Below are positions 14,980 through 32,542 of a DNA stretch of 64,000 nucleotides, piece by piece; position 1 is the stretch's first letter; every line of letters begins with the position of its first letter. The position numbers were made by a program, and so were the translations under genes. Under the pieces are notes generated by a model. That model made no database searches, was not told the DNA's origin, and worked only from the letters and a program-made list of their open reading frames with translations. Source of the DNA: an uncultured bacterium (GTDB lineage: Bacteria; CSSED10-310; CAZUFC01). The stretch is from positions 8,570 through 72,569 of the forward strand of contig CAZUFC010000027.1 of the NCBI GenBank assembly GCA_964619725.1, written 5' to 3'.

Positions 14980-15279
14980 CCTGAGAAGGGTTTGCGAAGG
15001 GGTCAGAGCCCAGCGTGGAGCCCAGCGTGAAGCCTTGATTTTACAGGCGAGTGGGGGCTGAAATCCTTAGAGATTCCTATAAGCTTTCGTCTGCGAAGGG
15101 GTCTGCGAAGGGGTCAGAGCCCTGCTGGAAGCTATAAAAAATAAGGGAATTTTTGACTCTGTGCGTTAATATCATTATTTAGTAGAGAGGAATCTTGCGA
15201 GGGATTTTTGCAGGAGTTCTCTTTATTTATTCCAATGATGAATAGCAGGGTCAGGTATACCTATGGGAGGAAAAATTCA

Positions 15280-18200
15280 ATGAAAATAAGGATTTTGAAG
15301 TCACGTTTTGTGACATGTTTAATTTTTTGTTTTGCAGCAATCGCTTTTACGGGAATAGCAGTTTTGGGAGAGGGTCCTGGAAATGATTCAGGGGAGCAGA
15401 AGATTATAGAATCGGCGTTAAAGGCAAATGATTTTTCAGAGCTTAGCAAGGGGCTTGATAAGGTATGCGAAGAGATCGGAGTTCCAGCGAAAAAAACGAG
15501 GAACGAAAAGGAGGGAAAAGATGAAGCCTTGCGTTCTGCGGGACCCCCGGAATATGGGTCGTCCGTATCTATAAAAAGGGAGATTCACAGGGTGCAGGAG
15601 AACGGTTCGGATTCCATACCCTGGCCGACTGATTGGGACATCGACGGCCGGATGGATATTGTTTCGGGCGGTAATGACGGTCGTGTCAGATTGAGCAGGA
15701 ATATCGGGACATCAACGGAACCGAAATTTGAAAATGCGGTAACAATAATGATGGGTTACAGTTATGTCGATATCGGTTATAACTCGTCTCCCGTTCATTA
15801 CGATTGGGATTCAGACGGAAGCAGAGATTTGCTGGTTGGGGGTTGGCAAGGGAATGTAACTTTTTTCAAAAACAACGGCAGCGACACGACTCCGAATTTT
15901 TCAGGCGGAGTGCAACTGGACGCCGGTTACAGCGTTCTGGATGTGGGCAGCGGTTCACATCCCTTTGTCGTTGATTGGAATAATGACGGAAAGGATGATC
16001 TTCTTGTCGGAGGACATAACGGTCATGTGAATCTTTATATGAACGTCGGTTCTCAGACGAGTCCTCAACTTAATACAGGAAGTCAGATACAGGTGGGTTA
16101 TAATCCTCTGGATATGGAGGCGAAAGCGCAGCCCTGGGTCGTTGATTGGAACGGCGACGGGAAGAAGGATTTAATCGTATCGGGATTCAGTCCGTCAAAG
16201 ATATCGCTTTTTGAGAATGTGGGGACGGATGCATCTCCAGCGTTCAGCGAAGAAACTGTATTGTACGAGAAAGGGAAGCCGGTATGGCCGACTCTGGATA
16301 CCGGCTGGGCATTTGCCGATATGAACGGCGACGGAGCGGAAGATTTGGTGTTCATGGATTTTCATGCCGGCGTTAGATATTTTATGAACAAGGGAACCAA
16401 TCTAAGCAGAATATATGAAGAAGCGTATTACATTCCGGGAGAAGAACCGACAGATTTTTATCATACGATAAAGGCGCCCCGAGTCGTAGACTGGGATGAG
16501 AACGGATTAAAGGATATAGTTTTCAATATCTGGCGCGATGACCGTCATTACGTATGTTTTAATACGGGAACGGACTCAGAACCTAAGTTTACTCATCAGA
16601 AATTACTAACGACGACAACTGACCGTCATATGGGTTTCAACATTGATTATCATTGTCCTGAGATAGTCGATTGGGACAATGACGGAAAGAAGGATGTATT
16701 GATAGCGCGACAGGATGCATCGGGGCATGGCGATATCTATATTTTTTTAAATACGGGAGAGAATTACGATCCTGAGTTCGGGGAGCCTGAGAAGTTGTCG
16801 TCGGGTTATACCGATTTAGGACCGGAACGAACGATGAGCGTAGAGACGGCAGACTGGAATTCAGACGGCAAGAAGGATTTGCTTTTAGGTTCACAGGTGT
16901 GGACGGCGAGCGGGCGATTGCAATATGTATATGTGAATGATGGGACGGATGCCGCCCCCGAATTTTCAAGCGGTGCAGTCTTGTCTTACGGACCGGCGGG
17001 ATATGAACAACCGATACCCGGAACCTGGGTATCGAATCCTCACGTATGGGACTATGAAGAAGACGGCGACCCAGACATATTTACGACTACTAATGATGCC
17101 AGGGAGAGGGTTCATATTTTCAATAACGATGGATCAGCCGGGAATCCTCATTTAACGGATGGCGGTTTTTTATCTGCGGGTTATGGTTATGTCGGCGGCA
17201 GCGGACATATATTTCCAGAAACGACGGATTGGGACGAGGACGGCAGGAAGGACATGATCATCGGCGAGCGGAATACGATATCGTATTATCCCAATGAACA
17301 GACTAATCTTACGTCGCCTGGCGAGGTATCGGATTTGATGGTAGCCGGTGCGTCCGATTTTTCTATCAGTTTGACCTGGACGAACCCCGGTGATGAAGAT
17401 TTTAAAGGGGTGATTATAGTCCGTTCGCAGTCAACAATAACATGGAAGCCTTCCGACAGACAGGGTTATCATGTTGTTCCGGGAATAGAGATCGCTCCCG
17501 GAATCGAAGTAGTTTACAAAGGGGATGGAGACCATTCAACGGCGCCCTGGACGGATACCGGATTGAATCCTGGAACTCGTTATTATTACAGGGCGTTCGC
17601 CTATGACGCGGTTTTGCCGTCGTATTCAGTAGACGGAAGAGAGGTAAATGCGTTGACGGGCGGAGACACTCCCACACCGACGCCCACGATGCCTCCGACC
17701 GATACTCCTTTACCGACCGATACTCCCCTGCCGACGGATACTCCCCTGCCTGGACCTGCGGGCCCCCCAGAGTTCCTTTCGGCTCTGGAGATAAAACGCA
17801 ACGTTTACAAGATTAACGGTCATAATGGATGGTCGCCTTTTGTGACTGATTGGGACAATGATGGCCGTAAAGACCTGCTGGCAGGACACCATGACGGCCG
17901 CGTCTATGTTGCGATGAATATCGGGACCGGACAGGAGCCGAGACTGGATGAGGCGTATTTATTGCAGGCCGGATACAGTGATCTGGATGTAGTATGGTGG
18001 GCCTCGGCTCCGATGCATTATGACTGGAACGCTGACGGAAAGCGGGATTTGATCATCGGAAATATGAACGGCAACGTCTATTATTTCCGAAACTACGGTT
18101 CGGGTAATTCGCCTTCATTCAATTCCGGAGCTCAGCTTTCAGCAGGAGGAAGCGTCATTGACGTGGGATACGATGCACAGCCTGTGGTAGAGGATTGGAA

Positions 18201-21200
18201 CAATGACGGAAAACACGATCTCCTTGTCGGAGGGGCTCACAACGGCAAAATCAATCTTTTCCTCAATACAGGCAGCAATTCATCTCCACAGCTAGCTTCA
18301 GGCGAATTGATCGAGTCAGGAGGATCGCCTATCGCATTAGGCGCTAAGGTTAAACCTTGGGTAATGGACTGGAATTCAGACGGTCGAAAGGACCTTGTGG
18401 TCTCTGCAAGCGATTACCAGGGCGGTTCAATATACCTGTATGAAAATGTGGGAACCGATGCGGCTCCGGTTTTCGATGAGCGTCAAACGCTTTTCGGTAG
18501 GAATTTTGCCGTTCCGTTAAACGCCAAGGACTGCTGGACGTTCGCCGACTGGAACGGCGATTCAAAGACTGAAGTAGTAATAATCAATGATATGGGCGCC
18601 GTCATGTATTATCCTAATCAGGGAACGGAGTCGAATCGCAGCTATAGAGAAGCCATGTATGTGCCGGGCGATGAACCCACGATGATCTTCAATGAAGGGA
18701 AGATACCTCGAATAGTGGATTGGGATGAGGACGGATTGAAGGATATTTTTGTGAATTCTAGCCGCGGCGGATCGCATTATGTAATAGTCAACACGGGCAC
18801 GGTTGAAACGCCGAAATTCACCGGACAGAAGTTGCTGATGACGGATACCGGGAGTAAGATCGGGTTTCCGGGCAGTTGGTTCCAGTATATGACGCCTGAA
18901 GTCATCGATTGGGACAATGACGGCAAAAAGGACATTCTGGCCCCCAGGCGGGACTGGTATCAGGGCGGAGATGTTTATCTTTACATCAACGCAGGAGAAA
19001 ATTACGAACCTCAGTTCGGCGATCCTGTAAAACTGACGGACGGTTACACAGACATAGGACCTAAATCGACAAAGGGAATAGAAACGGTCGACTGGAATTC
19101 TGACGGTAAGAAGGATTTACTTCTGGGAACAGACTATTGGGGGGATAACGGGACATATCAGTATGTATATTTGAACGAAGGAACCGATTCCTCGCCGGAA
19201 TTTTCGTCTGGAGAACTGTTGCGATATGATGCCGGGGAGCCGATACACGGTTCTCCTTATTGCACTGTACGCGTATGGGACTATGAAGAAGACGGGGACC
19301 CGGACATCATTTCTGTGACGAACGAGTGCCGGGATAGGCTGACTAAATATAATAACGACGGCGTTTTGGGCAATCCGCATCTGGTTAATGAAGGTCATTT
19401 GACCACGGCTTACGGCTTTGTTTCCGGCTCCCATGTTGCTTTTGCGGAGCCCGTAGACTGGAATGAAGACGGAAAGAAGGACCTGGTGGTTGGACAACGC
19501 AATGGCATAATCTGGTATCCCAATAACCAATCCAATCAAACTTCTCCGCATGAAGTCAGCAATTTTTCGGTAGCAGGATCATCGGATTACAGTGTAAGTT
19601 TGAACTGGACCAATCCAAACGATAATGATTTTGCCGGCGTTATTCTGTTGAGGTCTTTATCTCCCATCGAATGGTTGCCTTCAGACTGCCAGCATTATCA
19701 CCTAAACGCAGGTGTCGAGGTCGCTCCGGGCATTGAAATAGCATATAAGGGAACTGGCGATTACTCGGCAGCGCCCTGGAACGATACCGGATTGATACCC
19801 GGAAACTTTTATCATTACAAGATATTCACTTTCGATCAGGTTATGCCGTTTTACTCAGTAAACGGTCGCGACGCAACGGCATATACAGGCGGAGAAACCC
19901 CGACTCCAGCGCCTCCGACAGAGACCCCTACGGCGACCGATACTCCCTTCCCGACTGATACGCCTCTTCCCGGACCTGCCGGACCGCCCGAATTTGATGA
20001 ACTGATTGAGATTAAAAGGGAAGCGTATCAGGTAAGTTCGTCAAGTTCAGGGAAGTACGAACCGTGGGTGACCGATTGGAACAGTGACGGCAAAAAGGAT
20101 TTGCTGACGGGGCAGTATGACGGACGAATCCGTTTGTGTCTGAACGACGGAACTGCTTCTGAGCCCAGGCTGCAGCCCAGCGTTTATGTGACGGGTGCTT
20201 ACGGGAACATAGACGCAGGCAATTATTCTTCTCCGGTCCATTACGACTGGGACGGCGACGGCAAAAGAGATTTACTGATAGGTAATAATACCGGCAACGT
20301 TGAATTTTACAAAAACTACGGCAGCGACTCAGCGCCTTCCTTTATAGACGGCGACGACCTGGATGCGGGGTATGGAATTCTGGACGTTGGCGGAATAGCT
20401 CAGCCGTTTCCTGTGGACTGGAATAATGACGGCAAAGATGATCTTGTCGTAGGAGCAAATGACGGATTCGTGCATCTGTTTATTAACGAGGGTGCCCAGA
20501 CTTCACCTCAACTTAATGCCGGCGGACCTCTGCAGGTGGGATATTCGCCGATAGACGTCGGTTCTGAAGCCAAACCCTGGGTCGTTGACTGGAACGGCGA
20601 CGGTCGAAAAGACCTGGTTGTTTCAGGTTGTTCAGCAGATGGGTGTCCGTTATGGCTATTCGAAAACATCAATACCGATGCGGAACCTCAGTTTGCCGGA
20701 GGCGTTATTCTGTATGATCACAACAGTCCGGTGGTCGAATCATACAATACGGGATTGACGATCGGCGATATGAATTCAGATGCAAAGGATGACATTGTCG
20801 CCGTATCAAGCGATTCGCAGGCTGTTATGTATTACGTCAATAAGGGTACGAACGCGAACAGAATTTATGAAGAAGCCATATACATACCCGGAGATGAACC
20901 GACCAGAATATTCAGTCACGACAAAGCGATTCGAGTGACGGACTGGGATGAGAACGGAGTAAAGGATTTGCTGGTAAATCTGGGTTGGAATGATCGACAT
21001 TATGTCATATTCAATACAGGATCAAGAGAAGAGCCGAAATTGACGAAACAACTTGCTCTGACCACGACAGCAGGAAGAAGTATCGGTTTTGAATCGTACA
21101 CCTATTTCTGTCCTGAAGTCGTAGACTGGGACAATGACGGCAAAAAGGACCTGCTGGTGACGCGGGCGGATTACAGTACCTATGGTGATATCTACTTGTT

Positions 21201-22386
21201 TTTAAATGAGGGTGAAAATTACGATCCTGTTTTCAATGCGCCTCAGATACTGTCTGGAGGATACGGCGATCTGGGACCGCAGAGAGCCAGGGGCGTGGAG
21301 ACGGCTGACTGGAATTCGGACGGAAAGAAGGATATTTTTGTCGGCAGCGACTTGAACCATTCCAATGGACATTATCAGTATTATTGCATTAATGCAGGAT
21401 CGGATTCCAATCCTGTTTTCGGGGCTGCGAATGTTTTAAGATACGGAGGAGGCGGTTACGATGCGCCCATACCCGGCACATGGCAGTCTACTCCTCATAT
21501 TTGGGATTATGAAGAAGACGGTGACCCGGATTTGTTTTCACGGACTCAGAACGACTATACTAAACTGATGAACTATGTGAATGACGGTTCACCCGGTTTG
21601 CCTCATCTGATCGAAGGCGGATTTATTGAAGCAGGATACGGATACGTTCAGCCGGGACTGGATGCGGAAACCGCTGACTGGAACAACGACGGAAAGAAAG
21701 ATTTGATGGTGGATATGTCCTGGGGGCTTGGTTACTACCCCAACAGTCAGGTTTCGTTGACGGCTCCGCATGAGGTAGTAGACTTCTCGATTGATTCGGT
21801 TAGCGGCGATTCAATCGATTTAGTCTGGCAACAACCGACCGATTATGATCTTGCTGGAGTGTTAATCGTGCGGTCGCTTTCACCGATCGTATGGCATCCG
21901 TCGGAAAGGCAGCATTACCATGTAGTATCAGGAGTTGAAGTGTCGTCGGGCGTTCAGATTATATACAAGGGCAATGATGATCATTCCGTTACGCCGTGGA
22001 CGGACGCCAATCTTGCCGAAGGGGAGACTTATTACTACCGGGCTTACGCTTATGATCTCGTTTTACCTTCTTATTCTGTAAATGGCGTTGAACTTGAGGT
22101 CACCACACTTATGGCAACTCCCACACCTGAAGTTACTCCGACGCAGGAGCCGCCGGAAACATCAACCGTTACGCCGACAGAAACATTAACTGTAACGCCA
22201 ACATTGACTTCAACTCCCACTCCTACAAATACGCCTACTTATTCTCCGACCACTACTCCCCTATCACCTACGCCGACAATAACACCGGAACCGACGCCGA
22301 TGCCTGCTCCGTCCTTGGGCGGATATGGAATTCTACTGATTACCGTTTTAATTGGAATTTCATTGTTGAAAACGAGGAGGAATTAA
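15280..22386 (+). CDS. Large surface protein: 3 x (10 FG-GAP/VCBS-like repeats + FnIII-like domain + P/T linker), with CTERM anchor
   Basis: Recurrent DWxxDGxxD motifs, LTWTNP...Y.YRAFAYD FnIII-like domains, and tail PAPSLGGYG-TM-KTRRN. ATG 15280 follows GGAGG. Confidence 0.85.
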   Translation: MKIRILKSRFVTCLIFCFAAIAFTGIAVLGEGPGNDSGEQKIIESALKANDFSELSKGLDKVCEEIGVPAKKTRNEKEGKDEALRSAGPPEYGSSVSIKREIHRVQENGSDSIPWPTDWDIDGRMDIVSGGNDGRVRLSRNIGTSTEPKFENAVTIMMGYSYVDIGYNSSPVHYDWDSDGSRDLLVGGWQGNVTFFKNNGSDTTPNFSGGVQLDAGYSVLDVGSGSHPFVVDWNNDGKDDLLVGGHNGHVNLYMNVGSQTSPQLNTGSQIQVGYNPLDMEAKAQPWVVDWNGDGKKDLIVSGFSPSKISLFENVGTDASPAFSEETVLYEKGKPVWPTLDTGWAFADMNGDGAEDLVFMDFHAGVRYFMNKGTNLSRIYEEAYYIPGEEPTDFYHTIKAPRVVDWDENGLKDIVFNIWRDDRHYVCFNTGTDSEPKFTHQKLLTTTTDRHMGFNIDYHCPEIVDWDNDGKKDVLIARQDASGHGDIYIFLNTGENYDPEFGEPEKLSSGYTDLGPERTMSVETADWNSDGKKDLLLGSQVWTASGRLQYVYVNDGTDAAPEFSSGAVLSYGPAGYEQPIPGTWVSNPHVWDYEEDGDPDIFTTTNDARERVHIFNNDGSAGNPHLTDGGFLSAGYGYVGGSGHIFPETTDWDEDGRKDMIIGERNTISYYPNEQTNLTSPGEVSDLMVAGASDFSISLTWTNPGDEDFKGVIIVRSQSTITWKPSDRQGYHVVPGIEIAPGIEVVYKGDGDHSTAPWTDTGLNPGTRYYYRAFAYDAVLPSYSVDGREVNALTGGDTPTPTPTMPPTDTPLPTDTPLPTDTPLPGPAGPPEFLSALEIKRNVYKINGHNGWSPFVTDWDNDGRKDLLAGHHDGRVYVAMNIGTGQEPRLDEAYLLQAGYSDLDVVWWASAPMHYDWNADGKRDLIIGNMNGNVYYFRNYGSGNSPSFNSGAQLSAGGSVIDVGYDAQPVVEDWNNDGKHDLLVGGAHNGKINLFLNTGSNSSPQLASGELIESGGSPIALGAKVKPWVMDWNSDGRKDLVVSASDYQGGSIYLYENVGTDAAPVFDERQTLFGRNFAVPLNAKDCWTFADWNGDSKTEVVIINDMGAVMYYPNQGTESNRSYREAMYVPGDEPTMIFNEGKIPRIVDWDEDGLKDIFVNSSRGGSHYVIVNTGTVETPKFTGQKLLMTDTGSKIGFPGSWFQYMTPEVIDWDNDGKKDILAPRRDWYQGGDVYLYINAGENYEPQFGDPVKLTDGYTDIGPKSTKGIETVDWNSDGKKDLLLGTDYWGDNGTYQYVYLNEGTDSSPEFSSGELLRYDAGEPIHGSPYCTVRVWDYEEDGDPDIISVTNECRDRLTKYNNDGVLGNPHLVNEGHLTTAYGFVSGSHVAFAEPVDWNEDGKKDLVVGQRNGIIWYPNNQSNQTSPHEVSNFSVAGSSDYSVSLNWTNPNDNDFAGVILLRSLSPIEWLPSDCQHYHLNAGVEVAPGIEIAYKGTGDYSAAPWNDTGLIPGNFYHYKIFTFDQVMPFYSVNGRDATAYTGGETPTPAPPTETPTATDTPFPTDTPLPGPAGPPEFDELIEIKREAYQVSSSSSGKYEPWVTDWNSDGKKDLLTGQYDGRIRLCLNDGTASEPRLQPSVYVTGAYGNIDAGNYSSPVHYDWDGDGKRDLLIGNNTGNVEFYKNYGSDSAPSFIDGDDLDAGYGILDVGGIAQPFPVDWNNDGKDDLVVGANDGFVHLFINEGAQTSPQLNAGGPLQVGYSPIDVGSEAKPWVVDWNGDGRKDLVVSGCSADGCPLWLFENINTDAEPQFAGGVILYDHNSPVVESYNTGLTIGDMNSDAKDDIVAVSSDSQAVMYYVNKGTNANRIYEEAIYIPGDEPTRIFSHDKAIRVTDWDENGVKDLLVNLGWNDRHYVIFNTGSREEPKLTKQLALTTTAGRSIGFESYTYFCPEVVDWDNDGKKDLLVTRADYSTYGDIYLFLNEGENYDPVFNAPQILSGGYGDLGPQRARGVETADWNSDGKKDIFVGSDLNHSNGHYQYYCINAGSDSNPVFGAANVLRYGGGGYDAPIPGTWQSTPHIWDYEEDGDPDLFSRTQNDYTKLMNYVNDGSPGLPHLIEGGFIEAGYGYVQPGLDAETADWNNDGKKDLMVDMSWGLGYYPNSQVSLTAPHEVVDFSIDSVSGDSIDLVWQQPTDYDLAGVLIVRSLSPIVWHPSERQHYHVVSGVEVSSGVQIIYKGNDDHSVTPWTDANLAEGETYYYRAYAYDLVLPSYSVNGVELEVTTLMATPTPEVTPTQEPPETSTVTPTETLTVTPTLTSTPTPTNTPTYSPTTTPLSPTPTITPEPTPMPAPSLGGYGILLITVLIGISLLKTRRN

Positions 22387-22848: not shown

Positions 22849-22957
22849 AAGGATTCGATATCCGGCAGGGATGAGAATTTTACTTGCAAAAGCGGCGGCT
22901 TATTATGTATTGTTTCATGTTAGCTGTTCGATTTTTGCGGAAAGGAGTCGAGGTTTT

Positions 22958-25303
22958 ATGATACATGAAGATTTTTACAAGCTGGATGAAAAATGCGACA
23001 AATTTCTGGTGACTTGCGCTTTGCCCTACGTCAATAATGTTCCTCACTTGGGCAACCTCGTCCCCATCTTATCGGCGGACGTTTACACGAGATATTTGAA
23101 GTTGACGGGCATTCCTGCGATCTACATATGTGCTACTGACGAGCATGGAACTCGTACAGAAATGGAATCGAAGAAAAGGAACATGACGCCTGAGGAGTAT
23201 TGTCGTTTGATGCACGATAGGATAAAGAAGATTTTCGAATGGTTCGGCGTCGAATTTACCTATTTTGGGAGAACGTCCAGCGAGTCGAATCATGAAATAA
23301 CTCGGGATATTTTCCTTCATTTGGATAAGAACGGGTATATCTTTGAGGATAAAATCGAGCAGTTATATTGCGAGACATGCGGGCATTTTTTACCGGATAC
23401 TTTTGTGCTTGGAACCTGTCCCCATTGTAATAATCCTGAATCGAAAGGCGATCAATGCGACGTATGCGGCCGGTTTTTGGAGTCTGTAGAACTGTTGAAT
23501 CCGAGGTGCAAGATTTGCGGAACACCTGCGATTATAAAGGAAAGCCGGCATTTATTTCTGGATTTGCCCAAACTCGGTCCGCTGGTCAGGGACTGGGTAA
23601 AGAGCCGTGAATTCTGGAAGGGGTATCAGATATACAATTTACCGCTGGCCTGGATAAAAGAAGGATTAAAACCCCGTTGCATAACCCGTGATCTGTCCTG
23701 GGGAGTCAGAACCCCGAAAAAGGGATATGAAGATAAAGTATTTTACGTGTGGTTTGACGCTCCGATAGGATATGCTGCAGCGACTTACGACTGGGCCAGG
23801 GAAAACGACCAGGATTTTAAAACGTGGTGGAAACATGACCAGTCAAAGATCATTCATTTCATGGGCAAAGATAATGTCCCTTTCCATACTATAATGTGGC
23901 CTTCATCGTTGCTGGGCGCTGATGATCATTGGACATTGCCCTATTTCATCGCTTCAAACGAATATCTCAATTATGAACACGGGCAGTTTTCCAAGAGCAG
24001 GGGAGCCGGCATCTTTTCAGATGATGTGACGGCGCTTGAATTTCCGGCTGATTTCTGGCGCTTTTATTTGATGGCTTACAGACCGGAAAAAACTGATACT
24101 GATTTTCTGTGGAAGGACTTTCTGCACGCCGTTAATACGGATTTGATCGGAAATATATTCAATTTCGTGCATCGAGTGCTGAGTTTTACTCATAAAAATT
24201 TCGGAGAAATACCTCGCCGCGGCCAATTGAGCGATGAAGAAAGGGAGATGCTCGCGACGATTTCGGAAAAAGAAAATGAAATAAGCGAAGCGTACGGGGA
24301 TTTTCTTTTTCGAGCTGCGGTCAGAAGCATACTGGATATGTCGGATATAGGCAACAGGTTCTTTCAGCACAGCGAGCCATGGAAAGTAATTAAAGAGGAT
24401 CGCAGCAGAACAGGCGCTATATGTCATGTCGCCCTGGAGATAATAGCCAGACTGATGCATTGGTGCTCGCCGATGATTCCCGATGCCGCCGATAAAGTTT
24501 CACGATATCTTTCGCTGGACCAGGAAATGAAGCTGGTTGAAGGCGCTGTTTTGAGTAAACCTAAGCCGGTTTATCCGCGTTTGGAAGAAGAGAGAATACA
24601 AGAGCTGGCAGAGATGTTCAGGGGAAAATCGGAAGAAAGAAAAGAATCTTTTCCCCCCATAACTTTCAAAAAAGAAGATGCTGTTGCTTACGATTGCGTG
24701 ATCCTGGAATTCAAGAATCTCGATATAAAAAAGAAAAATCCGGAACTGGAACAATTGAAAAAACAGGTCTACAGTGAAATAAAGCCGGATAGCCTCCAAA
24801 ACAGCGATTATGTCAAAGGTTACGATTCGCTGCTGGGGAAACAGGACCGCGGCAAACGCTCATCAGTCACCAACCTGATCGATATTTTCAGAAAAAATCA
24901 GAGAATACCGAACTTCAACGTCATGGTGGATGCCTACAACTTGATGTCGCTGAAATACGGCGTCGTCATGGGCGCTTACGAAAGAAGAACCATTAAAGGC
25001 AATTTGATCTATAAAGTCGCCGACGGCTCTGAACATTTTATCCCCGTCGCAAGCGGTCAGAAAGAAAAAGTGTACGAAGGCGAGTGGGTGATCGCTGATG
25101 AAACGGGTATGGTGGTTACGCGTATTCTGTCCAAGCAATCGGAAGCGGTCGCCATCACCATGAATACCCGCTCTGCCGTTATGTGCATCCAGGGGAATCC
25201 GTGTATTCCCTTGGATGAGCTTAACAGAATAGCTGTGGAGACGGCGGGTTTGATTCAGGAATTTTGCGGGGGCGGATACCGGGTCGTCTATCCGGAAAAA
25301 TAG
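22958..25303 (+). CDS. metG: Methionine--tRNA ligase with C-terminal B3/4-like domain
   Basis: ALPYVNNVPHLGN, TDEHGT, CxxC zinc knuckles, YVWFDAPIGY, GKDNVPFH and FSKS motifs. ATG 22958 follows GAGG. Confidence 0.93.
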   Translation: MIHEDFYKLDEKCDKFLVTCALPYVNNVPHLGNLVPILSADVYTRYLKLTGIPAIYICATDEHGTRTEMESKKRNMTPEEYCRLMHDRIKKIFEWFGVEFTYFGRTSSESNHEITRDIFLHLDKNGYIFEDKIEQLYCETCGHFLPDTFVLGTCPHCNNPESKGDQCDVCGRFLESVELLNPRCKICGTPAIIKESRHLFLDLPKLGPLVRDWVKSREFWKGYQIYNLPLAWIKEGLKPRCITRDLSWGVRTPKKGYEDKVFYVWFDAPIGYAAATYDWARENDQDFKTWWKHDQSKIIHFMGKDNVPFHTIMWPSSLLGADDHWTLPYFIASNEYLNYEHGQFSKSRGAGIFSDDVTALEFPADFWRFYLMAYRPEKTDTDFLWKDFLHAVNTDLIGNIFNFVHRVLSFTHKNFGEIPRRGQLSDEEREMLATISEKENEISEAYGDFLFRAAVRSILDMSDIGNRFFQHSEPWKVIKEDRSRTGAICHVALEIIARLMHWCSPMIPDAADKVSRYLSLDQEMKLVEGAVLSKPKPVYPRLEEERIQELAEMFRGKSEERKESFPPITFKKEDAVAYDCVILEFKNLDIKKKNPELEQLKKQVYSEIKPDSLQNSDYVKGYDSLLGKQDRGKRSSVTNLIDIFRKNQRIPNFNVMVDAYNLMSLKYGVVMGAYERRTIKGNLIYKVADGSEHFIPVASGQKEKVYEGEWVIADETGMVVTRILSKQSEAVAITMNTRSAVMCIQGNPCIPLDELNRIAVETAGLIQEFCGGGYRVVYPEK

Positions 25304-25340
25304 GAAAATTCGGCAAAAAAAGAAATTTTAGGAATAAGTA

Positions 25341-25370
25341 TTGACATTTCAGAAATTGTATGTTATCAAT
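25341..25370 (+). promoter_or_regulatory. Candidate sigma70-type promoter
   Basis: TTGACA at 25341, a 17-bp spacer, then an imperfect extended -10 (TGnTATCAA). Confidence 0.4.
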
Positions 25371-25578
25371 GAGCTGTTGAATGTTCACTTGGGGTGAACG
25401 GGGTGTGGGAAACTCAACAGTATCGTTTTGAGTAAACCGGGAACAGGAAAATACGGATAAAAAGTGATCCGCAGAGATGCACTCCCTGAGACGCATCTGC
25501 GTTTGACATTTCTGCGGCGGGTTCCAGGTTTATCTAATCATCTAGTTTCAAAAGACAAATTAAGTAAGGAGGACCGAT

Positions 25579-25761
25579 ATGGCCGAAAAGTTGGCGCAGT
25601 TCTATGAAGAAGCGAAGAAATTGGGAGGACTGAAGGCCCAGATGCGTCTAGCGGTAAAAACTGGCGTGACGTCTACGAAAGCGCCTCAGGTACCTGATGC
25701 ACCGGAGACGATAGCGAAATTTGAAAGCGCTATGAACGAGATACGGAAGGAATTTTCGTAA
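25579..25761 (+). CDS. Small hypothetical protein (60 aa)
   Basis: Perfect AAGGAGG RBS, helical sequence, first gene of a tightly packed operon. Confidence 0.8.
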   Translation: MAEKLAQFYEEAKKLGGLKAQMRLAVKTGVTSTKAPQVPDAPETIAKFESAMNEIRKEFS

Positions 25762-25777
25762 GAAGGGGGTATGTTAA

Positions 25778-26305
25778 ATGACGATATTTAAGAAGGATGA
25801 ACTAGTTTTAGATCACGTATTTGATCGAAAGACTAACAGGCATTACCTGAACGGGATGTTGAGCGTATTTCATTGTCATCATTATGCGACGTTATACACG
25901 CAGTTGGCGATGGATGCGGAGGAGACGGAATTATTGATCGACACGTCTGAAGACGTTTTTTTTGACATGTTGAAGAATTATTTTGAGACGCATGATGTAG
26001 ATTCAATCACGAAAAGAATAGATTTCGCTTGCGAATATTACGCTGCGCTTGGATTGGGAAAGATGAACGTGAGTTATGCGGGCGACGATTCCGGCCAGGT
26101 TGAGATAACGGCATCGCATTTAGATCAGGGATGGATAAAGAAGTGGGGTAAGCATGATGCGCCGGTCAATTATGTTGGTGCAGGCTACATCAACGCCATG
26201 TTTTCAGCAGTTTTCGACAAACCGAAGAAGTCATTTATGGCGACGGAGATACAGAGCATAGTAAAGGGCGCTGAAAGTTCTAAATTTAACGTGGTGGGGA
26301 GGTAA
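25778..26305 (+). CDS. V4R/4-vinyl-reductase-like domain protein with HCHHY motif
   Basis: LGLGKM...PVNYVGAGYINAMFS...EIQSIVKGAESSKF follows the V4R pattern. Confidence 0.65.
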   Translation: MTIFKKDELVLDHVFDRKTNRHYLNGMLSVFHCHHYATLYTQLAMDAEETELLIDTSEDVFFDMLKNYFETHDVDSITKRIDFACEYYAALGLGKMNVSYAGDDSGQVEITASHLDQGWIKKWGKHDAPVNYVGAGYINAMFSAVFDKPKKSFMATEIQSIVKGAESSKFNVVGR

Positions 26306-26916
26306 TGATGGCGATAGACAGAAATAAAGTAATTGATGAAATGTCGAAGATACAGATATGCGGAGATGAGAACGGGATAATCGATGCGTTTAACGTATTG
26401 GTGACGCAATTGCCGGCCAGGTTCTGGAATACGTTTGCGGACAGACTGACTCATAAGACGTCTCCCGAAATGCGGGAAGCCACGGAGTATCTGCTTTACA
26501 ATGCGGCCCATGAATGCGGTTATCACACGGGTTACGGAATCATCACATCGGAAGAATGGAAAGCGATAGTCGGTCCGATGGTTGAGAAGGTACCCGATGA
26601 CATTCTGCATGGAGCATTTGCCGTATTTACGGCCTGGGGCTGGGCTAATGCCGAGGTTGTTGAACTGGTACCCGGAGAAAAAATGGTTGTACGATCGTAC
26701 GATTATTATGAAGCCGACGTGGTGAAGTACGGAAGTTCGAGCAAGTTGAGCGCGTATATGATTGCTGGAGTTTCAGCAGCTTTTATGGAGCTTGCTTACG
26801 CTGGCGATTACGATCCGAAAGGGGCTCCGATCGGAACGTACGTATGCAAGCAGGTCAAAGGAATCGAATGCGGCGATCCTTATGGAGAGTTTATCGTAAC
26901 GAAAGCCGAAGGATAG
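26305..26916 (+). CDS. V4R-like domain protein
   Basis: AWGWANAEVV...AYMIAGVSAAFM...CKQVKGIECGDPYGEFIV. Coupled to the previous gene by a TAATG overlap. Confidence 0.65.
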   Translation: MMAIDRNKVIDEMSKIQICGDENGIIDAFNVLVTQLPARFWNTFADRLTHKTSPEMREATEYLLYNAAHECGYHTGYGIITSEEWKAIVGPMVEKVPDDILHGAFAVFTAWGWANAEVVELVPGEKMVVRSYDYYEADVVKYGSSSKLSAYMIAGVSAAFMELAYAGDYDPKGAPIGTYVCKQVKGIECGDPYGEFIVTKAEG

Positions 26917-26924
26917 AAAATATT

Positions 26925-26972
26925 CCGGGGCATGCGAAGCGAAGGGCGATTTTCGAGCGCTGCATGCCCCGG
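26925..26972. terminator. Stem-loop after the V4R genes
   Basis: ccggggcatgc...gcatgccccgg inverted repeat. No U-tract, so termination is uncertain. Confidence 0.4.
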
Positions 26973-27119
26973 ATTAAGTGGCGCGGATAAAGGTCCGGCG
27001 CTGCAATAAACATAAAGCGCATAATTACAGAAAAGAGATTAAGCGCCGTCGTTTTTTTCGTCGTTACGATTCGATTGCCGTTATAAAATTATCTTAAAAG
27101 GGGACAGCATTAAAAAGGA

Positions 27120-28271
27120 ATGATTTATTTAAACAATGCAGCAACAAGTTATCCCAAGCCTGAAAGAGTCATAAAAGCGGTGAAGGAGTGCATAGAGCAT
27201 CCAATGTTCCATGCATCCAGGACCGGTTATGAAAATCAGAAAAAGGACACGGTCAGTTTATGCCGTCAGGCGCTGGCTGATTTGTTCAATATACGCGACA
27301 GCGACAGGATAGTATTCACATCATGTTCAACGGAATCATTAAACCTGGCGTTAAACGGACTTCAAATGGACGGTGGGCATGCGGTAACGACGACGATAGA
27401 GCACAATTCAGTCCTGCGGCCTTTAAAGACGATGGAAAGAGAGGGACGTATTCGTTTGTCCATAGTAGACTGCAAGGGACAGGGAGATGTGGACGTAGAG
27501 GAAGTAGCCGCTCAGATAGGACCTGACACCAGAGCTGTGGTGGTCAATCATTGCTCCAATGTTACGGGAGCGGTTACGGACATAAAAACGCTGGGGAATA
27601 TCGTCTCGGAAAAGCGTATCCCATATGTGGTAGACGTATCTCAGAGTGCCGGGGCCATGAGTGTAGACGTCGAAGAGTGCCGGATAGACCTTTTGGCATT
27701 CACTGGACACAAATCTCTTTATGGAATGCCGGGAATAGGCGGATTGTATATTCGCGAGAACATTGATTTAAGACCGTTAAAAATAGGCGGCACGGGGGTA
27801 AGAAGCGACTACCTGTTTCAGCCTGAATCGATGCCCATGTATTATGAGGCGGGAACGCCCAACATGCCGGGCATTATTTCATTGCTGGAAGGGGTTTCAT
27901 TCGTTCTGGAGACCGGCGTCCAAAGAATATTGGAGCACAAGCAACGATGCGTGAAAAAAATTATAGAGGCTTTTGAAAAGAACGAAAAAATTGAATTTTA
28001 TGCTGCCGGTAACGGCAACTCATCTTATCCAACGCTGCTTTCCTTCAATGTAAAAGGCATGAATCCCGCGGACGTCGGATACATGCTGGAAAATTCTTTT
28101 GAAATTGCCGTTCGTTCGGGTTTGCATTGCGCGCCTCTTATTCACAAAGCAGTAGGCTCTTTTCCTGACGGCTCTGTGCGGGTCAGTCCTTCATTTTTCA
28201 CTACCGATCAGGAATTGGAATATTTTTTAGAATCGATCGAAACCATCTGTGAAGCCGGCGATGCGTTATGA
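27120..28271 (+). CDS. Cysteine desulfurase-family class V aminotransferase
   Basis: IYLNNAATS, EHNSV, FTGHKSL (PLP lysine), EAGTPN and RSGLHCAP (catalytic Cys). Confidence 0.9.
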   Translation: MIYLNNAATSYPKPERVIKAVKECIEHPMFHASRTGYENQKKDTVSLCRQALADLFNIRDSDRIVFTSCSTESLNLALNGLQMDGGHAVTTTIEHNSVLRPLKTMEREGRIRLSIVDCKGQGDVDVEEVAAQIGPDTRAVVVNHCSNVTGAVTDIKTLGNIVSEKRIPYVVDVSQSAGAMSVDVEECRIDLLAFTGHKSLYGMPGIGGLYIRENIDLRPLKIGGTGVRSDYLFQPESMPMYYEAGTPNMPGIISLLEGVSFVLETGVQRILEHKQRCVKKIIEAFEKNEKIEFYAAGNGNSSYPTLLSFNVKGMNPADVGYMLENSFEIAVRSGLHCAPLIHKAVGSFPDGSVRVSPSFFTTDQELEYFLESIETICEAGDAL

Positions 28272-28606
28272 GAATCGTTAATGTCAGGCACATTGAGGAT
28301 TGTTTTGACGGTTCATTTATAAAAGAGATACTTTTCGATTCAATCATAACGAAAGAGTTCATCTTTTTTCTTGGTGAAGAGGGCGAGCTTCAATATTTAG
28401 GGAAACTCAAGAAACCGTTCTTCAAGATACGAGTGAAAGGGAAATATGAATTTAAAGGCGTTCAGGGGAACAGAACGATAAGGATAATTTTAAAGAATAA
28501 TCCCGAAAATTCGCTGAAAGAATTTCAAGATAGAATAAAAGAATTTAGGGCAAGGGAGAGCGACCGGGGATATCACGAATCTTTGAAAGAGGCGAGTTGC
28601 GGATAA
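28268..28606 (+). CDS. Hypothetical protein (112 aa) with EDCFDG motif
   Basis: ATGA overlap with the desulfurase gene; ends at the terminator hairpin. Confidence 0.7.
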   Translation: MRIVNVRHIEDCFDGSFIKEILFDSIITKEFIFFLGEEGELQYLGKLKKPFFKIRVKGKYEFKGVQGNRTIRIILKNNPENSLKEFQDRIKEFRARESDRGYHESLKEASCG

Positions 28607-28666
28607 AAAAACGGCCTTTCAGTCTGTTGAAGCGATCATGTTGAAACAGTCTGAAAGGCCGTTTTT
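28607..28666. terminator. Bidirectional intrinsic terminator
   Basis: aaaaacggcctttcag...ctgaaaggccgttttt between convergent genes. Confidence 0.75.
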
Positions 28667-28678
28667 CCTGTTTAAGAA

Positions 28679-31600
28679 TTAAAATTTATTTTTTCTGATA
28701 TAGGCCAGGAAAGCAACAGTGAGCGACAGCAGGAGGCTCAAAATGCCGACTGAACCGAGAGCGGGTATAGGCGCTGGAGTCGGCTGGACAGTTGGGGCGG
28801 CCGTCATTTCCGGAGTATAGCTGGGAGTTGCTGTAGGGGTATTCGTAGGAATTTCCGTAGGAATTTCAGTGGGTATTTCTGTCGGAATTTCGGTTGGGAC
28901 TTGAGTGGGTATATCTGTAGGAATTGCGGTGGGCGCTTGAGTAGGAATATCGGTAGGGAATGGCGTAGGGATGGGAGTAGGCGGTTGATCGTTGTAATGG
29001 AAGCCGATATCGACAGTTCCGTCGTCGTCAACGATATCGGTTCTGGTATTCAGTTCGCTGAGATAGATGCCGAGGACCTGGAGGTTTGCGGCTAGGTCGC
29101 TGCCGGCGTCGACGCATGGGCTGTCCTGAGATTGACCGGCTGCTATTTGGCTGAGATAGTTATTTCCGCTGGGACCTGATGTAAAAAGCGGGTCAGCAGC
29201 GATGTCATTGGGTCCGGCCGTGCATCCGAAATAATCCTGATTGTTATTCCACAAGCAATTGTAATCGATGGTGGGGTCTTTTGAGGAGTCGCCGGAGGCG
29301 TATCCTGTACTGATGAGTATTCCGATATTGGTTTGAGAAGCAATGATATTGTCTTTAATAACAGGTGAGGGATCGTATCCCAACAGATAGATGCCGTCGG
29401 AAGAATCCGCCAGCGTATTGTTTGTAATAAGAGGTTCCATGGAAAATTCGCCGTTGTTTTGAATTTTGACGCTTTGTTCGGCGACACCGGTAATCAGGTT
29501 ATTGGATATTACGCTTGTACATGTGCTTCCTGCGTCGATATCGATACCTCGCTGAGTATTCTTGATTATGTTATGGGCGAAGGTTCCTTCAGCGCCGGTT
29601 GAGTAATCGGCATTCAGGAAAATGCCCATGGTTTCGCCGATGTCAGCGGCATCGATGATGTTATCGGAAATGATGGGATTGGTGGTTTGCTTTGAGTCTT
29701 CCCGTTTATTGACGGGTTGCTGTGACCGCAGGTAAATTCCGCTGTCCATAATATTGCGGCTTATGGTCGGAATTAACTGATCGCTTGTGTTGACGCCTAT
29801 GCCGTATTCCGGTCCTCCGGAAATAATGTTATCCGTTATCGTAGGGGCCGAAATGTCGTAATGCGGCATGAATAATTCTCCGCAAAAAATCCCGTACATC
29901 CCCGCTTTTGCGTTGTACTGAGGAGAGAACATGCTGATTTCATTATTTGAGATGGTCGGAGTGACAGAACCACTCATTGCGGCAGCGAATACGCCGTTCT
30001 GTCTGGTTTTATCAATTTTATTATTTGAGACGACGGCAACGTTTTCGGCGCCGTAACTGCCGATTACTATTCCTGTGGAGCTGTCGAGAATCACATTGGA
30101 AGTTATGGCGGAATTTAAATTTCCATCTCCCGTGCCGGCGGCGATTCCGACGTTCATAGCTCCGCCGAAATAGGGGCCGGTGATAGTATTGTCCGTAATT
30201 TGAGCTGAATTGTATCCATTCACGGAATATGTAAAAATTCCGCCCATGTAGGCGCTGTCGATGGTGTTTTGAGCAACGCTGCCGGTCACGTTTAAGGTGT
30301 CGGACCAGCAGTAAACTCCGGCAACCACGTTGCTCAGATCATTCTGCGTAACGGATAAATTCATCGTGTTCTGTTTAGGATCGTCGGCTGAAGCGGGAGA
30401 ACCATATTCATAAACTGATATGCCGGTGTAGGAATCCATTATAACGTTATCGACGACGGATGGGGCCGTTTCGCCGTTGTAGACGACTGCTTGTACGCCG
30501 GCGCCGTATGCCCTGATTGAATTTCGGCTGATTTCGGGATCATTGGCGCCGTAATAGGCAAAAGAAACCATGCCGGTGGAGGATTCCAGAATTGAATTAT
30601 CGACGATAGTGGGCATTGAATTGCCTGCGTAGCTGTAGCCGCCTATTCCCAGGTCAAAGGCGGAAATAACGTTCTCACTGATGTACGATTCATTGTTGCA
30701 GAATTCAGAAACGGCAAGAATGCCTGTACTGCAGTTTAATAGTTTGTTGTCGACGATTGAAGGGGTGAATTCTGTATCTTTCGACACCTCTTCGGCGCTA
30801 TCTCTGAGGAAAATGCCTGTCTCGGCGTTTACAATCTCATTTTGCGAGATGCCGGAAGTCAGACTTCCGCTGACGGATGTCAGATAAATGCCCGTCCATT
30901 CGGCTGAAATTTTATTACCGACTATCGAACCTTCGACGTTTCCGTTAAGGGAGGAGCATGATATTCCCGATCCGCTTGCCGATTCAACCATATTGCCGGT
31001 TATGATCGGACTGGCTGAACTGTCGCCTCCAAACATTGATATTCCGTCATCATCAACAGCGAGCACGTTCTGAGAAACCACCGGTGATATTTCTCCATCA
31101 TAGGCGCTCAAGAAAATGCCTGTGTTGGAATCTATAATGAGGTTATCGATGACTGATGATGTGACGTTTCCGTTGGCATCTATGAAAATGCCGGTATCAG
31201 AATCGAATTCACTTCCGAAGATGGTGTTCTGATTGAAGTCCATCGTTATATTTCCATTCTCGGCGGCGGTTCTTATTCCAAATCCGAAGTTGTCCCCGCT
31301 GAAAATCTCGTTTTGAGAAATTGTTCCGCCGATGTCCGAGAATTCTGATTCACAATGGACTGCATAATTTCCTGAGTAAATAAAATTACGCGTTATGCTG
31401 GGATTGAACCCCTTTTTTTCCAGGCCGTAACCGTTACGGATAATTATGCCGGGATCGCCGGAAGTAATGAAGTTGTCGGAAATAGTCGGATCGACGATAT
31501 CGCCGCTGATGGACGCCATAAAAACACCCATATGCAAAGTATCGATATCATTATTGCTGCAGGTCGGCATCATGTATCCGTTATAGCCGTAGAAGTCAAT

Positions 31601-32542
31601 TCCGCTGTTGTTTGAAGTGATAGTGTTGTAAGTTATTTCGCTCTCGATATATCCGGAGTAAATATACATGTAGACGCCTTTTCCGAAGTAGGCGTTGAAC
31701 TGATTATTCGATATGGAGGTGTTGATGAAACCGGTATCGATGAAGAAATCGACTGCCGTTCCCCGGGATGTCACCTCGTTATAGGCGATCGCTGCCGTTA
31801 AATAATCGGCGTTTGTTTCAAAGGATATTCCAGCGCCTTCAGCCGTTATCGAGTTCATGCTGATGTCAATGTCTGCAGGCACGGAAGAGGTTGAATTCAC
31901 GGCAATGCCCCCGGAAACGTCGGTGATCGTATTGCCGGCTATGATCGGCGTTCCTTGAAGGATATCCCGGCCCGGACTGTATCCCGTTATGATCATGATT
32001 CCCGTGGGAGGATAAACAGAATAATAGTATTCCGTTCCTGAAATAACATTGTCGGTGATGGATGCGTCGGAATTGAAAGAATAAATGCCGTAATCGACGT
32101 AATAAGGAACGGCCGGATAGTTGATCGTATTGTTGGAGATCGTAACCGCACTGGAAGTAAGGTTTATCGCTTCCGGCGTCCAATTTACGACGTGAAAACC
32201 GTCTAAAAGTCCGTCCGTCAAGTTTGTAGCCGAAACTGGCGTCCCTGTTCCCGCTGCATCGATCACCGTAACATAGTTTACAATGTCACGACTCCAACCA
32301 GAAGATTCATAACCTCCCAGCAGCGATACTCCCTCTTTTAATTGGATCAGCTCCGAATAAACTCCCCGCGCCACCTGCACGGTGTCTCCGGACTCAGCAA
32401 TGGCCAGTGCTTCGTTTATCGTTTCAAAGTCTCCGCCTCCTGACCAGTCGACCTTGAAGACCGCTCCATGGACAGGAAGCATGAATCCCGCGATTCCGGC
32501 AAGAAAAAATGAAAATTGAATCATTCTCAACAGCTTTTTCAC
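28679..32542 (-). CDS. Large right-handed beta-helix surface protein with IPTE linker repeats and IPTL-CTERM-like tail
   Basis: Signal peptide, GDFETINEAL...GDTVQVARGVY, many IS.N.I...GI turns, and tail IPALGSVG-TM-RKNKF. Confidence 0.85.
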   Translation of the reverse strand: MKKLLRMIQFSFFLAGIAGFMLPVHGAVFKVDWSGGGDFETINEALAIAESGDTVQVARGVYSELIQLKEGVSLLGGYESSGWSRDIVNYVTVIDAAGTGTPVSATNLTDGLLDGFHVVNWTPEAINLTSSAVTISNNTINYPAVPYYVDYGIYSFNSDASITDNVISGTEYYYSVYPPTGIMIITGYSPGRDILQGTPIIAGNTITDVSGGIAVNSTSSVPADIDISMNSITAEGAGISFETNADYLTAAIAYNEVTSRGTAVDFFIDTGFINTSISNNQFNAYFGKGVYMYIYSGYIESEITYNTITSNNSGIDFYGYNGYMMPTCSNNDIDTLHMGVFMASISGDIVDPTISDNFITSGDPGIIIRNGYGLEKKGFNPSITRNFIYSGNYAVHCESEFSDIGGTISQNEIFSGDNFGFGIRTAAENGNITMDFNQNTIFGSEFDSDTGIFIDANGNVTSSVIDNLIIDSNTGIFLSAYDGEISPVVSQNVLAVDDDGISMFGGDSSASPIITGNMVESASGSGISCSSLNGNVEGSIVGNKISAEWTGIYLTSVSGSLTSGISQNEIVNAETGIFLRDSAEEVSKDTEFTPSIVDNKLLNCSTGILAVSEFCNNESYISENVISAFDLGIGGYSYAGNSMPTIVDNSILESSTGMVSFAYYGANDPEISRNSIRAYGAGVQAVVYNGETAPSVVDNVIMDSYTGISVYEYGSPASADDPKQNTMNLSVTQNDLSNVVAGVYCWSDTLNVTGSVAQNTIDSAYMGGIFTYSVNGYNSAQITDNTITGPYFGGAMNVGIAAGTGDGNLNSAITSNVILDSSTGIVIGSYGAENVAVVSNNKIDKTRQNGVFAAAMSGSVTPTISNNEISMFSPQYNAKAGMYGIFCGELFMPHYDISAPTITDNIISGGPEYGIGVNTSDQLIPTISRNIMDSGIYLRSQQPVNKREDSKQTTNPIISDNIIDAADIGETMGIFLNADYSTGAEGTFAHNIIKNTQRGIDIDAGSTCTSVISNNLITGVAEQSVKIQNNGEFSMEPLITNNTLADSSDGIYLLGYDPSPVIKDNIIASQTNIGILISTGYASGDSSKDPTIDYNCLWNNNQDYFGCTAGPNDIAADPLFTSGPSGNNYLSQIAAGQSQDSPCVDAGSDLAANLQVLGIYLSELNTRTDIVDDDGTVDIGFHYNDQPPTPIPTPFPTDIPTQAPTAIPTDIPTQVPTEIPTEIPTEIPTEIPTNTPTATPSYTPEMTAAPTVQPTPAPIPALGSVGILSLLLSLTVAFLAYIRKNKF

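Follow-up and report, generated by a model that had tools for sequence, protein, structure and literature searches.

A conserved cassette joining a pair of V4R/MopR-fold proteins to a cysteine desulfurase and a one-cysteine partner: a candidate cytoplasmic sensor module

The DNA described here (the window) is a stretch of 64,000 nucleotides of contig CAZUFC010000027.1 (assembly GCA_964619725.1), from an uncultured bacterium of the lineage CSSED10-310. It contains a cassette of five genes encoding a 60-residue protein (S60), two proteins of the V4R/MopR fold (A175 and B203), a cysteine desulfurase (DES) and a 112-residue protein with a single invariant cysteine (E112). The cassette recurs in 63 other loci, and we propose that S60, A175 and B203 form a portable cytoplasmic sensor, whose Cys/His centre would depend on a dedicated sulfur relay provided by DES and E112. 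This composite reading is offered tentatively, as one that comes close to being probable without reaching it. Several of its elements have comparative support. These are the existence of the gene module, the predicted fold, the conserved residues, the fusions of A with B and the coupling at genome level; to them come the intact desulfurase, whose one-Cys partner is specific to the cassette, and the unrelated signal transducers that recur as neighbours. As far as sequence searches can tell, four of the five proteins (S60, A175, B203 and E112) belong to no described family. The features of the cassette are as follows.

25565-25572, + strand: Shine-Dalgarno sequence TAAGGAGG, 6 nt 5' of the S60 ATG, read from the sequence
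25579-25761, + strand: S60 gene, 60 residues, predicted helical partner protein, no known family
25778-26305, + strand: A175 gene, 175 residues, predicted V4R/MopR-fold subunit A with H32-C33-H34-H35 and S113-H114
26305-26916, + strand: B203 gene, 203 residues, predicted V4R/MopR-fold subunit B with E70-C71-G-Y73-H74 and C181, the most conserved component
26917-27119, + strand: spacer between B203 and DES, 203 nt, structured, with an 11-bp perfect stem at about 26925-26972
27120-28271, + strand: DES gene, type II (SufS-like) cysteine desulfurase dependent on pyridoxal phosphate (PLP), TIGR01977 class
28268-28606, + strand: E112 gene, 112 residues, one invariant Cys (E10-D11-C12-F-D-G), candidate persulfide acceptor
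28607-28666, unstranded: intrinsic terminator acting in both directions, at the end of the cassette and of the convergent gene

As noted in a preliminary description made from the letters of this stretch, the five open reading frames are all on the + strand and run up to one terminator. The 60-residue gene does have a good ribosome-binding site, with TAAGGAGG six bases ahead of its ATG; the two V4R-like genes are translationally coupled, the stop of A175 and the start of B203 overlapping (TAATGATG); the desulfurase gene and the 112-residue gene share an ATGA at 28268-28271; and the motifs quoted in that description are present in the translations. Since B203 homologues begin with MAIDR, translation of B203 may in fact start at the second ATG (26308). 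The hairpin at 28607-28666 (-35.3 kcal/mol, z -8.97; 0/200 shuffles equally good; A/U runs on both sides) is the sole strong terminator and is common to the cassette and the convergent gene. It was missed, owing to its long loop, by the promoter/terminator consensus scan, which gave nothing above shuffles, and Rfam gave no match in 25200-28800, spacer included.

Co-occurrence of the genes in other genomes, on which the preliminary description had made its proposal depend, was indeed found. Taking one genome per species, we collected 63 loci, which by their record titles span a dozen or more phyla, two archaeal bins included; two loci come from cultured strains, Paludibaculum fermentans and Aliikangiella maris, with a chemoreceptor gene adjacent in A. 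maris (order chemoreceptor-DES-E112-S60-A-B). A census of these loci and the window by six-frame searches with hidden Markov models (HMMs) found B203, the anchor by construction, in 64/64 loci, A175 in 62/64 (both misses being contig ends), S60 in 56/64 (three misses at contig ends, five real), E112 in 55/64 and DES, scored over 250 bits, in 50/64; several loci without DES or E112 are cut near the cassette. Identity to the window protein was 55-80% for B203, 36-58% for the A175 orthologues, 33-61% for DES, 20-60% for E112 and 30-63% for S60. With 1320 B203 homologues (E<=1e-3, among 1420 candidates) and the cassette in 63 other loci, the genes are real and not chance open reading frames. The best 119 non-self B203 matches (120 listed) were 70-80% identical, and 120/120 had no Pfam domain, the named ones being called 'hypothetical'.

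The five genes come in two orders, S60-A-B-DES-E112 and DES-E112-S60-A-B. E112 adjoined DES or B203 in every locus examined, and in six loci it lies directly 3' of B203 with no DES nearby. Five of those six genomes were checked, and 5/5 hold exactly one above-cut-off gene of the TIGR01977 class elsewhere, accompanied in one of them by a second E112 copy; the corresponding figure for control genomes was 0/14. The desulfurase is therefore linked in relatives, either by adjacency, as in most loci, or by a distant gene of the same class. In a sample of the class of G041 (61 genomes), B203 was present in 2 genomes, E112 in the same 2 and TIGR01977 over its cut-off in 5; in a sample of the phylum of G042 (51 genomes), orthologue-level B203 was present in 4, with one divergent fusion in addition, and E112 in those 4 and 2 others. 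Over the pooled 112 genomes, E112 was found in 6/6 genomes with orthologue-level B203 and in 2/106 of the remainder, though G041, G042 and G044 were already known cassette carriers, leaving three independent B203 positives (G088, G136 and G153), all with E112.

The module is rare and patchy: among the window's relatives, A175 was found in 4/41 genomes, the window's own counted. A quick B203 tree joins, with good support, Treponema with Peptococcaceae and Holophagales, and Sedimentisphaerales with Desulfobacteraceae and Spirochaetia, and its 12 phylum labels need 16 changes vs a minimum of 11. This mixing of phyla points to spread of the module by horizontal transfer. A Melioribacteraceae copy of the cassette has IS1595-family transposase genes on both sides (L013, 3917-4846 and 11404-12057), which fits mobility of the module.

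S60, A175, B203 and E112 gave no Pfam or NCBIfam match, V4R not being reached even at E<=1, and sequence-profile searches of the PDB gave nothing below E 0.5 for A175, B203 and S60. AlphaFold2 models built on alignments made in this analysis had a pLDDT (predicted local distance difference test score) of 92.7 for A175 and 86.1 for B203. With Foldseek, the phenol-sensor domains (XylR_N+V4R) of MopR, PoxR and DmpR came first for both subunits at a probability of 1.00, the top match being PoxR for A175 (5frw_A; E 5.6e-9, TM-score 0.77) and MopR for B203 (5kbi_A; E 3.3e-7, TM-score 0.70). TRAPP Bet3 subunits and the V4R protein MJ_1460 ranked next (2osd, 2oso; E 2.4e-4 to 1.1e-3), and B203 matched H-NOX only weakly (E 2.7e-3, TM-score 0.36). 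The C-terminal halves of A175 and B203 are distant paralogues (hhalign E 2.7e-5, probability 74.5%). Intermediate sequences are provided by divergent A-B fusions from three genomes, two of the window's phylum (G002 and G004) and one of the Zixibacteriota (G151).

L003 (G004), 718-1959, - strand: divergent A-B fusion, 413 residues
L004 (G002), 1444-2712, + strand: divergent A-B fusion, 422 residues
L091 (G151), 1480-2748, + strand: divergent A-B fusion, open frame of 423 residues

The A175 and B203 HMMs both match these divergent fusions (L004 with E 5e-23 and 2e-16; L091 also), and the Pfam V4R model (PF02830) gave 30.6 bits on L004 vs a cut-off of 31. All three fusions carry the E-x2-C...C-x-F pattern of E-x2-C-x3-G-x3-C-x-F, which we take to be the C-terminal metal-ligand motif of V4R domains. 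The earlier designation of A175 and B203 as atypical V4R proteins thus stands at the level of the fold and of intermediate sequences, i.e. of the superfamily, but not at that of Pfam membership. It was correct that the usual E-x2-C...C spacing is absent from both, A175 having E157/S160/G164/S168/F170 and B203 Q183/G186/G190/G194/F196. The zinc-ligand positions of MopR-type V4R domains presumably correspond to N131/E157/S160/S168 in A and Q183/G186/G194 in B; as these positions are substituted, the canonical V4R zinc site appears to be gone. Both subunits are stand-alone proteins. No fusion to a sigma-54 AAA+ domain was seen, the search for longer forms having given only 7 A-B fusions, which is weak evidence of absence.

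These 7 natural proteins, of 387-405 residues, are all A-then-B fusions and back the heterodimeric V4R pair that had been proposed in the preliminary description. The suggestion that the small protein is a partner of this pair found support in a multimer prediction. With S60 as the partner of A175 and B203, the three-chain prediction scored 0.92, the best of three controls scoring 0.00; the mark for such scores was reached by 116/157 solved complexes vs 2/215 mismatched pairs, a calibration that is only rough here, our own alignments and three chains having been used. The runs agreed in at least 97% of contacts, with a partner pLDDT of at least 88. In the model, residues 18-34 and 54-58 of S60 contact A at 42-47 and 123 and B at 52-66 and 177, and the helices so contacted follow or carry the His/Cys motifs. 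The model thus supports S60 as a third subunit of the A175/B203 complex. Among proteins of 122-2000 residues, no fusion of S60 to another domain was found, which is weak evidence. Within S60 itself, D40 (27/27) and R23 (26/27) are conserved.

In exchange for the zinc site, A and B seem to have gained a new, (near-)invariant Cys/His/acidic centre, made of C-H-H in A and E-C-x-Y-H in B, as supported by comparison of the orthologues. In A175, H32, C33, H34, H35, S113 and H114 are each found in 42/43 sequences, the exception being a second, 19%-identical paralogue in L063; W119 and E157 are likewise found in 42/43 and D116 in 41/43. In B203, C71, Y73, H74, Q183, E188 and E195 are each found in 37/37 sequences, E70 in 36/37 and C181 in 34/37. 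The preliminary description had counted on conservation of the His/Cys residues; this was observed for H32/C33/H34/H35 of A175, E70/C71/H74 of B203 and C12 of E112, but not for H69 (23/37) and C189 (28/37) of B203. The three divergent fusions keep the HCHH motif, C71 and the canonical V4R cysteines, whereas their residues at positions 70, 73 and 74 are V, F and N instead of E, Y and H. No E112 was found in their genomes (G002, G004 and G151), so the E-C-G-Y-H motif appears to track the sulfur genes, with n = 3 only.

C33-x-H35 in A (42/43) and C71-x-x-H74 in B (37/37) reproduce, across two subunits, the C-x-H and C-x-x-H ligand boxes of Rieske-type 2Cys/2His [2Fe-2S] sites, though the fold is not that of Rieske proteins. 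We regard this resemblance as a lead rather than a finding. The metal or iron-sulfur (Fe-S) site that had been suggested for the pair is at this stage an inference.

DES is a class-V PLP enzyme (Aminotran_5, E 5e-78; TIGR01977, 404.3 bits vs a cut-off of 377), falling below the model of the selenocysteine lyase SclA (NF040779; 315.5 bits vs a cut-off of 525). Its nearest solved structures are desulfurases of the SufS/CsdB type (5b7s_A, E 8.6e-50), with which the PLP-binding Lys (K198), the catalytic Cys (C337) and the PLP-stacking His (H95) align; each of the three is present in 39/39 cassette desulfurases. DES is an additional copy, the host genome having at least three strong class-V desulfurase-like genes besides it. 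An anti-phage defence reading was rejected: PADLOC matched only DES, to SspA/DndA (about 185 bits), as a result of generic desulfurase similarity, and none of the other four proteins.

The Cys-containing partner that had been postulated for the desulfurase has two features expected of an acceptor, its gene being coupled to DES by the ATGA overlap and C12 being invariant in 38/38 sequences (E10 in 36/38). E112 has 490 stand-alone relatives. It shows no similarity to SufE, CsdE, SufU or TusA in Pfam and NCBIfam searches, a PDB profile search gave no match at all at E<=10, and the ESM Atlas returned unnamed clusters only for E112 and one relative. The invariant Cys and the gene coupling make E112 a candidate persulfide acceptor.

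We considered the possibility that the centre is a metal-free thiol switch, in which DES and E112 would load sulfane sulfur on Cys33 of A175 and Cys71 of B203, as a persulfide or polysulfide bridge, so as to report the supply of cysteine or sulfane sulfur. The presence of only two invariant cysteines in A/B and of one in E112 would suit such a switch, as would the established chemistry of the desulfurase family, whose substrate is L-cysteine, and the lack of an Fe-S scaffold gene in the cassette. There is also a parallel in MsvR, a V4R-domain regulator of methanogens, for which the accessible part of the report describes conserved cysteines that switch the protein with redox state (PMC3729527). 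Yet H32, H34, H35, H114 and D116 in A and E70, H74, E188 and E195 in B are invariant residues that resemble metal ligands, and it is not obvious why a sensor of ambient sulfane sulfur should have a desulfurase of its own. We therefore consider the thiol switch rather unlikely.

Another possibility was that DES and E112 are a general sulfur or selenium mobilization pair that merely travels with the V4R trio. DES-E112 pairs are indeed found in 2 genomes without an A175 match, adjoining a radical-SAM gene in both; there (L092, 4883-9339; L093, 5083-9582) the pair is divergent from the gene of a radical-SAM protein of ~810 residues (Radical_SAM_N2 + DUF2344). Since no A or B gene is present, the sulfur pair may have a second client. 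TIGR01977 was furthermore detected in 3/59 A/B-negative genomes, and in the accessible text of Haft and Self this family (EF_2568) is listed as a probable selenocysteine lyase (PMC2276186). In the window, the two gene blocks are divided by the 203-nt spacer, of which the first 144 nt (26917-27060) fold better than shuffles (z -4.15). The preliminary description had not mentioned this spacer, which holds further hairpins beside the 11-bp stem. Judged from locus coordinates, this gap is usually far shorter in related loci; the spacer may set differing expression of the sensor and sulfur genes, or be an inserted palindromic element. Against mere co-travelling, E112 still adjoins B203 in the 6 loci without an adjacent DES and accompanies B203 in 6/6 positive genomes of the samples, both gene orders hold the five genes together across many phyla, DES remains well under the SclA cut-off (315.5 vs 525), and the ECGYH motif tracks the presence of E112. 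Taken together, these data make separate sulfur genes improbable.

We scanned the 203 proteins encoded within two genes of the cassette in the 63 loci. Chemotaxis genes were found at 17/63 loci: a chemoreceptor at 14, with CheA and CheB flanking the cassette in one of these, and CheW at 2 more; CheC adjoins an archaeal copy. In two related Treponema bins, the gene immediately upstream encodes a PP2C (SpoIIE) phosphatase with a HAMP or dCache domain, and 4 loci have histidine kinases or response regulators near the cassette. In a crude hydropathy scan, 10/10 complete, co-oriented upstream chemoreceptors had transmembrane segments only in their first ~135 residues, separated by loops of at most 30 residues, which leaves no room for a periplasmic ligand-binding domain. 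The earlier remark that no output domain is present is thus true of the window, but other genomes have genes for output proteins beside the cassette, be they chemoreceptors, PP2C phosphatases or Roadblock proteins.

In the five loci lacking S60 (L056, L062, L064, L065 and L066), a chemoreceptor gene stands directly upstream of A175. The four of them included in the tree form one clade, so that this arrangement represents one event. Their chemoreceptors share a basic C-terminal tail (…RLGxhxhRxKR; absent from the other 11 examined). This tail was considered as a stand-in for S60 and discarded, the S60 HMM giving no meaningful score on 16 chemoreceptors and the association amounting to one event at most.

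V4R proteins include carriers of the BchJ type, and we examined whether the A/B/S60 complex could be an enzyme or carrier binding a hydrophobic substrate (a tetrapyrrole, bilin, lipid or quinone) and acting with DES and E112 in sulfur insertion or as a chaperone. The very strong conservation of B203 and the 46/63 loci with no chemotaxis neighbour are in keeping with this proposal, and V4R clade A/B pairs occur with an Fe-S protein in bilin-related clusters, according to the accessible part of Rockwell et al. (PMC10151467). Among the 203 flanking proteins, though, there was no conserved biosynthetic gene product and no haem oxygenase, bilin reductase, globin or ferredoxin-type Fe-S protein. Signal transducers, of several unrelated types, are the sole neighbours that recur, and the adjacent chemoreceptors could not themselves accommodate a periplasmic input domain. 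An enzyme or carrier role is thus unlikely.

A different type of partner was encountered in G005, a genome of the same phylum, in which four Roadblock/LC7 genes are interleaved with the cassette in the order Robl-Robl-A-B-Robl-Robl-DES-E112; no S60 was found in this locus (L079, C32:8000-22000; - strand, 4085-9430). Its neighbours encode a sigma-54 activator, a histidine-kinase-like ATPase and a receiver-DUF4388 protein. This arrangement raised the possibility that the Bet3-like V4R pair acts with Roadblock/longin-type partners, in the manner of eukaryotic TRAPP, to regulate a small GTPase or ParA-type switch; S60 would replace Roadblock in the window. Bet3/TRAPP subunits were significant Foldseek matches, and a relationship between V4R and Bet3 is described in the accessible part of a published study (PMC2253512). 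However, the host genome, which is 91% complete, gave 0 Roadblock matches, most loci have S60 and no Roadblock gene, and the sulfur genes would be left unexplained. We find a TRAPP-like function very improbable.

The preferred reading, that of a sulfur-dependent cytoplasmic sensor, can be put in the form of a mechanism. S60, A175 and B203 would assemble into a cytoplasmic heterotrimer with A175 and B203 sharing the fold of the MopR/PoxR ligand sensors, but without its structural zinc site and with a newly gained Cys/His/acidic centre. DES would take sulfur from L-cysteine to form a persulfide on Cys12 of E112, and E112 would deliver this sulfur to the A/B centre, the product being a sulfide-containing metal site or a persulfide/polysulfide; more specifically, we would guess at a [2Fe-2S] cluster with 2Cys/2His ligands shared between the subunits. 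A transducer supplied by the host would read out, in trans, the state of this centre (redox, O2/NO or sulfur status). In other genomes, the transducer may be a chemoreceptor that cannot accommodate a periplasmic domain, a PP2C phosphatase or a set of Roadblock proteins.

In its fullest version, the proposal describes a portable input module: a V4R-pair heterotrimer whose Rieske-like half-sets (C-x-H in A, C-x-x-H in B) would hold an inter-subunit [2Fe-2S] or related sulfide centre, built by its own DES and one-Cys carrier. Chemoreceptors without a sensor domain, PP2C phosphatases or Roadblock-type switches would receive from it information on redox, O2 or sulfur status, and horizontal transfer would have carried the module into some archaea and at least a dozen bacterial phyla. 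With all these details, we consider it doubtful.

A number of observations weigh against the sensor reading. The transfer of sulfur from DES via Cys12 of E112 to A/B, the cofactor, the sensor role and the readout in trans are all deduced. The A and B proteins have only two strictly conserved cysteines, few for an Fe-S site, and the cassette encodes no U-type scaffold. In the window there is no signalling neighbour, the flanks being occupied by a methionyl-tRNA synthetase (MetRS) and large repeat proteins. The host has three chemoreceptor genes, all on contigs other than that of the cassette; they are of a long, multi-repeat type, and the available pieces, each of which touches a locus end, show no transmembrane segment. 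Elsewhere, at 46/63 loci, the two genes on either side of the cassette include none for chemotaxis. The loci are moreover phylogenetically related, as illustrated by the single clade of S60-less, chemoreceptor-linked loci, and the counts therefore overstate their independence. A conservation of 55-80% across phyla, as seen for B203, is unusual for a sensor and would fit an enzyme or a structural complex too. Finally, with DES-E112 pairs in 2 genomes without A/B and TIGR01977 in 3/59 A/B-negative genomes, the sulfur pair is not exclusive to an A/B client.

A few observations concern other genes adjoining the cassette. The window's MetRS (22871-25303, + strand) has a C-terminal B3/4 domain (PF03483; residues 662-774, E 2.7e-13), a domain normally found in the beta subunit of phenylalanyl-tRNA synthetase, MetRS more usually having a tRNA-binding appendix at this place. 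Giant repeat proteins flank the cassette, namely a 2392-residue FG-GAP-repeat protein (15208-22386, + strand) and a 1287-residue protein (28679-32542, - strand) with no Pfam match at E<=1e-12; in each of them, the linkers are rich in Pro and Thr and the C-terminal tail is hydrophobic. In two Aureispira bins (L017 and L018), the cassette adjoins the gene of FdhD, a sulfurtransferase for molybdoenzymes (2844-3713 in L017), and L018 also has a molybdopterin oxidoreductase gene (2683-4983 and 8091-8912 for the two genes of L018).

A wholly unannotated module in which one protein is 55-80% identical across a dozen or more phyla is a rare case of conservation. If the sensor reading is correct, it would explain where a class of chemoreceptors without input domain obtains its signal, and would provide a new cofactor site for the V4R/Bet3 fold, a first function outside selenium metabolism for a desulfurase of the TIGR01977 class and, with E112, a new kind of persulfide carrier. 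The existence of two cultured carriers that are not pathogens, P. fermentans and A. maris, makes the hypothesis directly testable.

Full-text literature searches, judged on titles and the beginnings of abstracts and covering sources other than subscription journals and supplements, yielded, among the papers listed, no description of the module, which can nevertheless be compared with several known systems. The sensor domains of MopR, PoxR and DmpR are dimeric sensors of small ligands. They are the best structural matches of both subunits (5frw_A, TM-score 0.77; 5kbi_A, TM-score 0.70), and their C-terminal strand-turn-strand motif is recognizable in A/B. By contrast, A175 and B203 are stand-alone proteins, modelled as a heterodimer rather than a homodimer and with a third subunit of 60 residues; their V4R Glu/Cys zinc-ligand positions are replaced, they have no Pfam match and they are coupled to a desulfurase.

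The sulfur genes recall the SufS-SufE/SufU and CsdA-CsdE systems, with a SufS-like enzyme having the invariant Lys, Cys and His and a coupled small one-Cys protein downstream. They differ from them in that E112 has no detectable similarity to the known acceptors, DES belongs to the uncharacterized TIGR01977 class and the probable client is a V4R-fold complex rather than general Fe-S assembly. H-NOX proteins and the diiron protein ODP of Treponema denticola are stand-alone cytoplasmic sensors encoded next to chemoreceptors. Like them, A, B and S60 are small soluble proteins encoded, at some loci, beside a chemoreceptor without ligand-binding domain of its own, but they belong to another fold family, comprise three subunits and have their own sulfur-mobilizing genes.

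Closer in fold are the V4R clade A/B pairs that, in the accessible part of Rockwell et al. (PMC10151467), occur with an Fe-S protein and a globin in slr0144-slr0149 of Synechocystis and in pre-PcyA clusters. Here too, two distinct V4R-type proteins belong to a conserved cluster with putative involvement of iron-sulfur chemistry, whereas the partners of A175 and B203 are a desulfurase, a one-Cys protein and a 60-residue protein; the two systems are set apart by this description, not by a comparison of sequences. Lastly, MsvR, as portrayed in the accessible part of its report (PMC3729527), binds DNA as a homodimer and relies on the canonical V4R cysteines, whereas in A and B these positions are not Cys and the conserved cysteines lie elsewhere.

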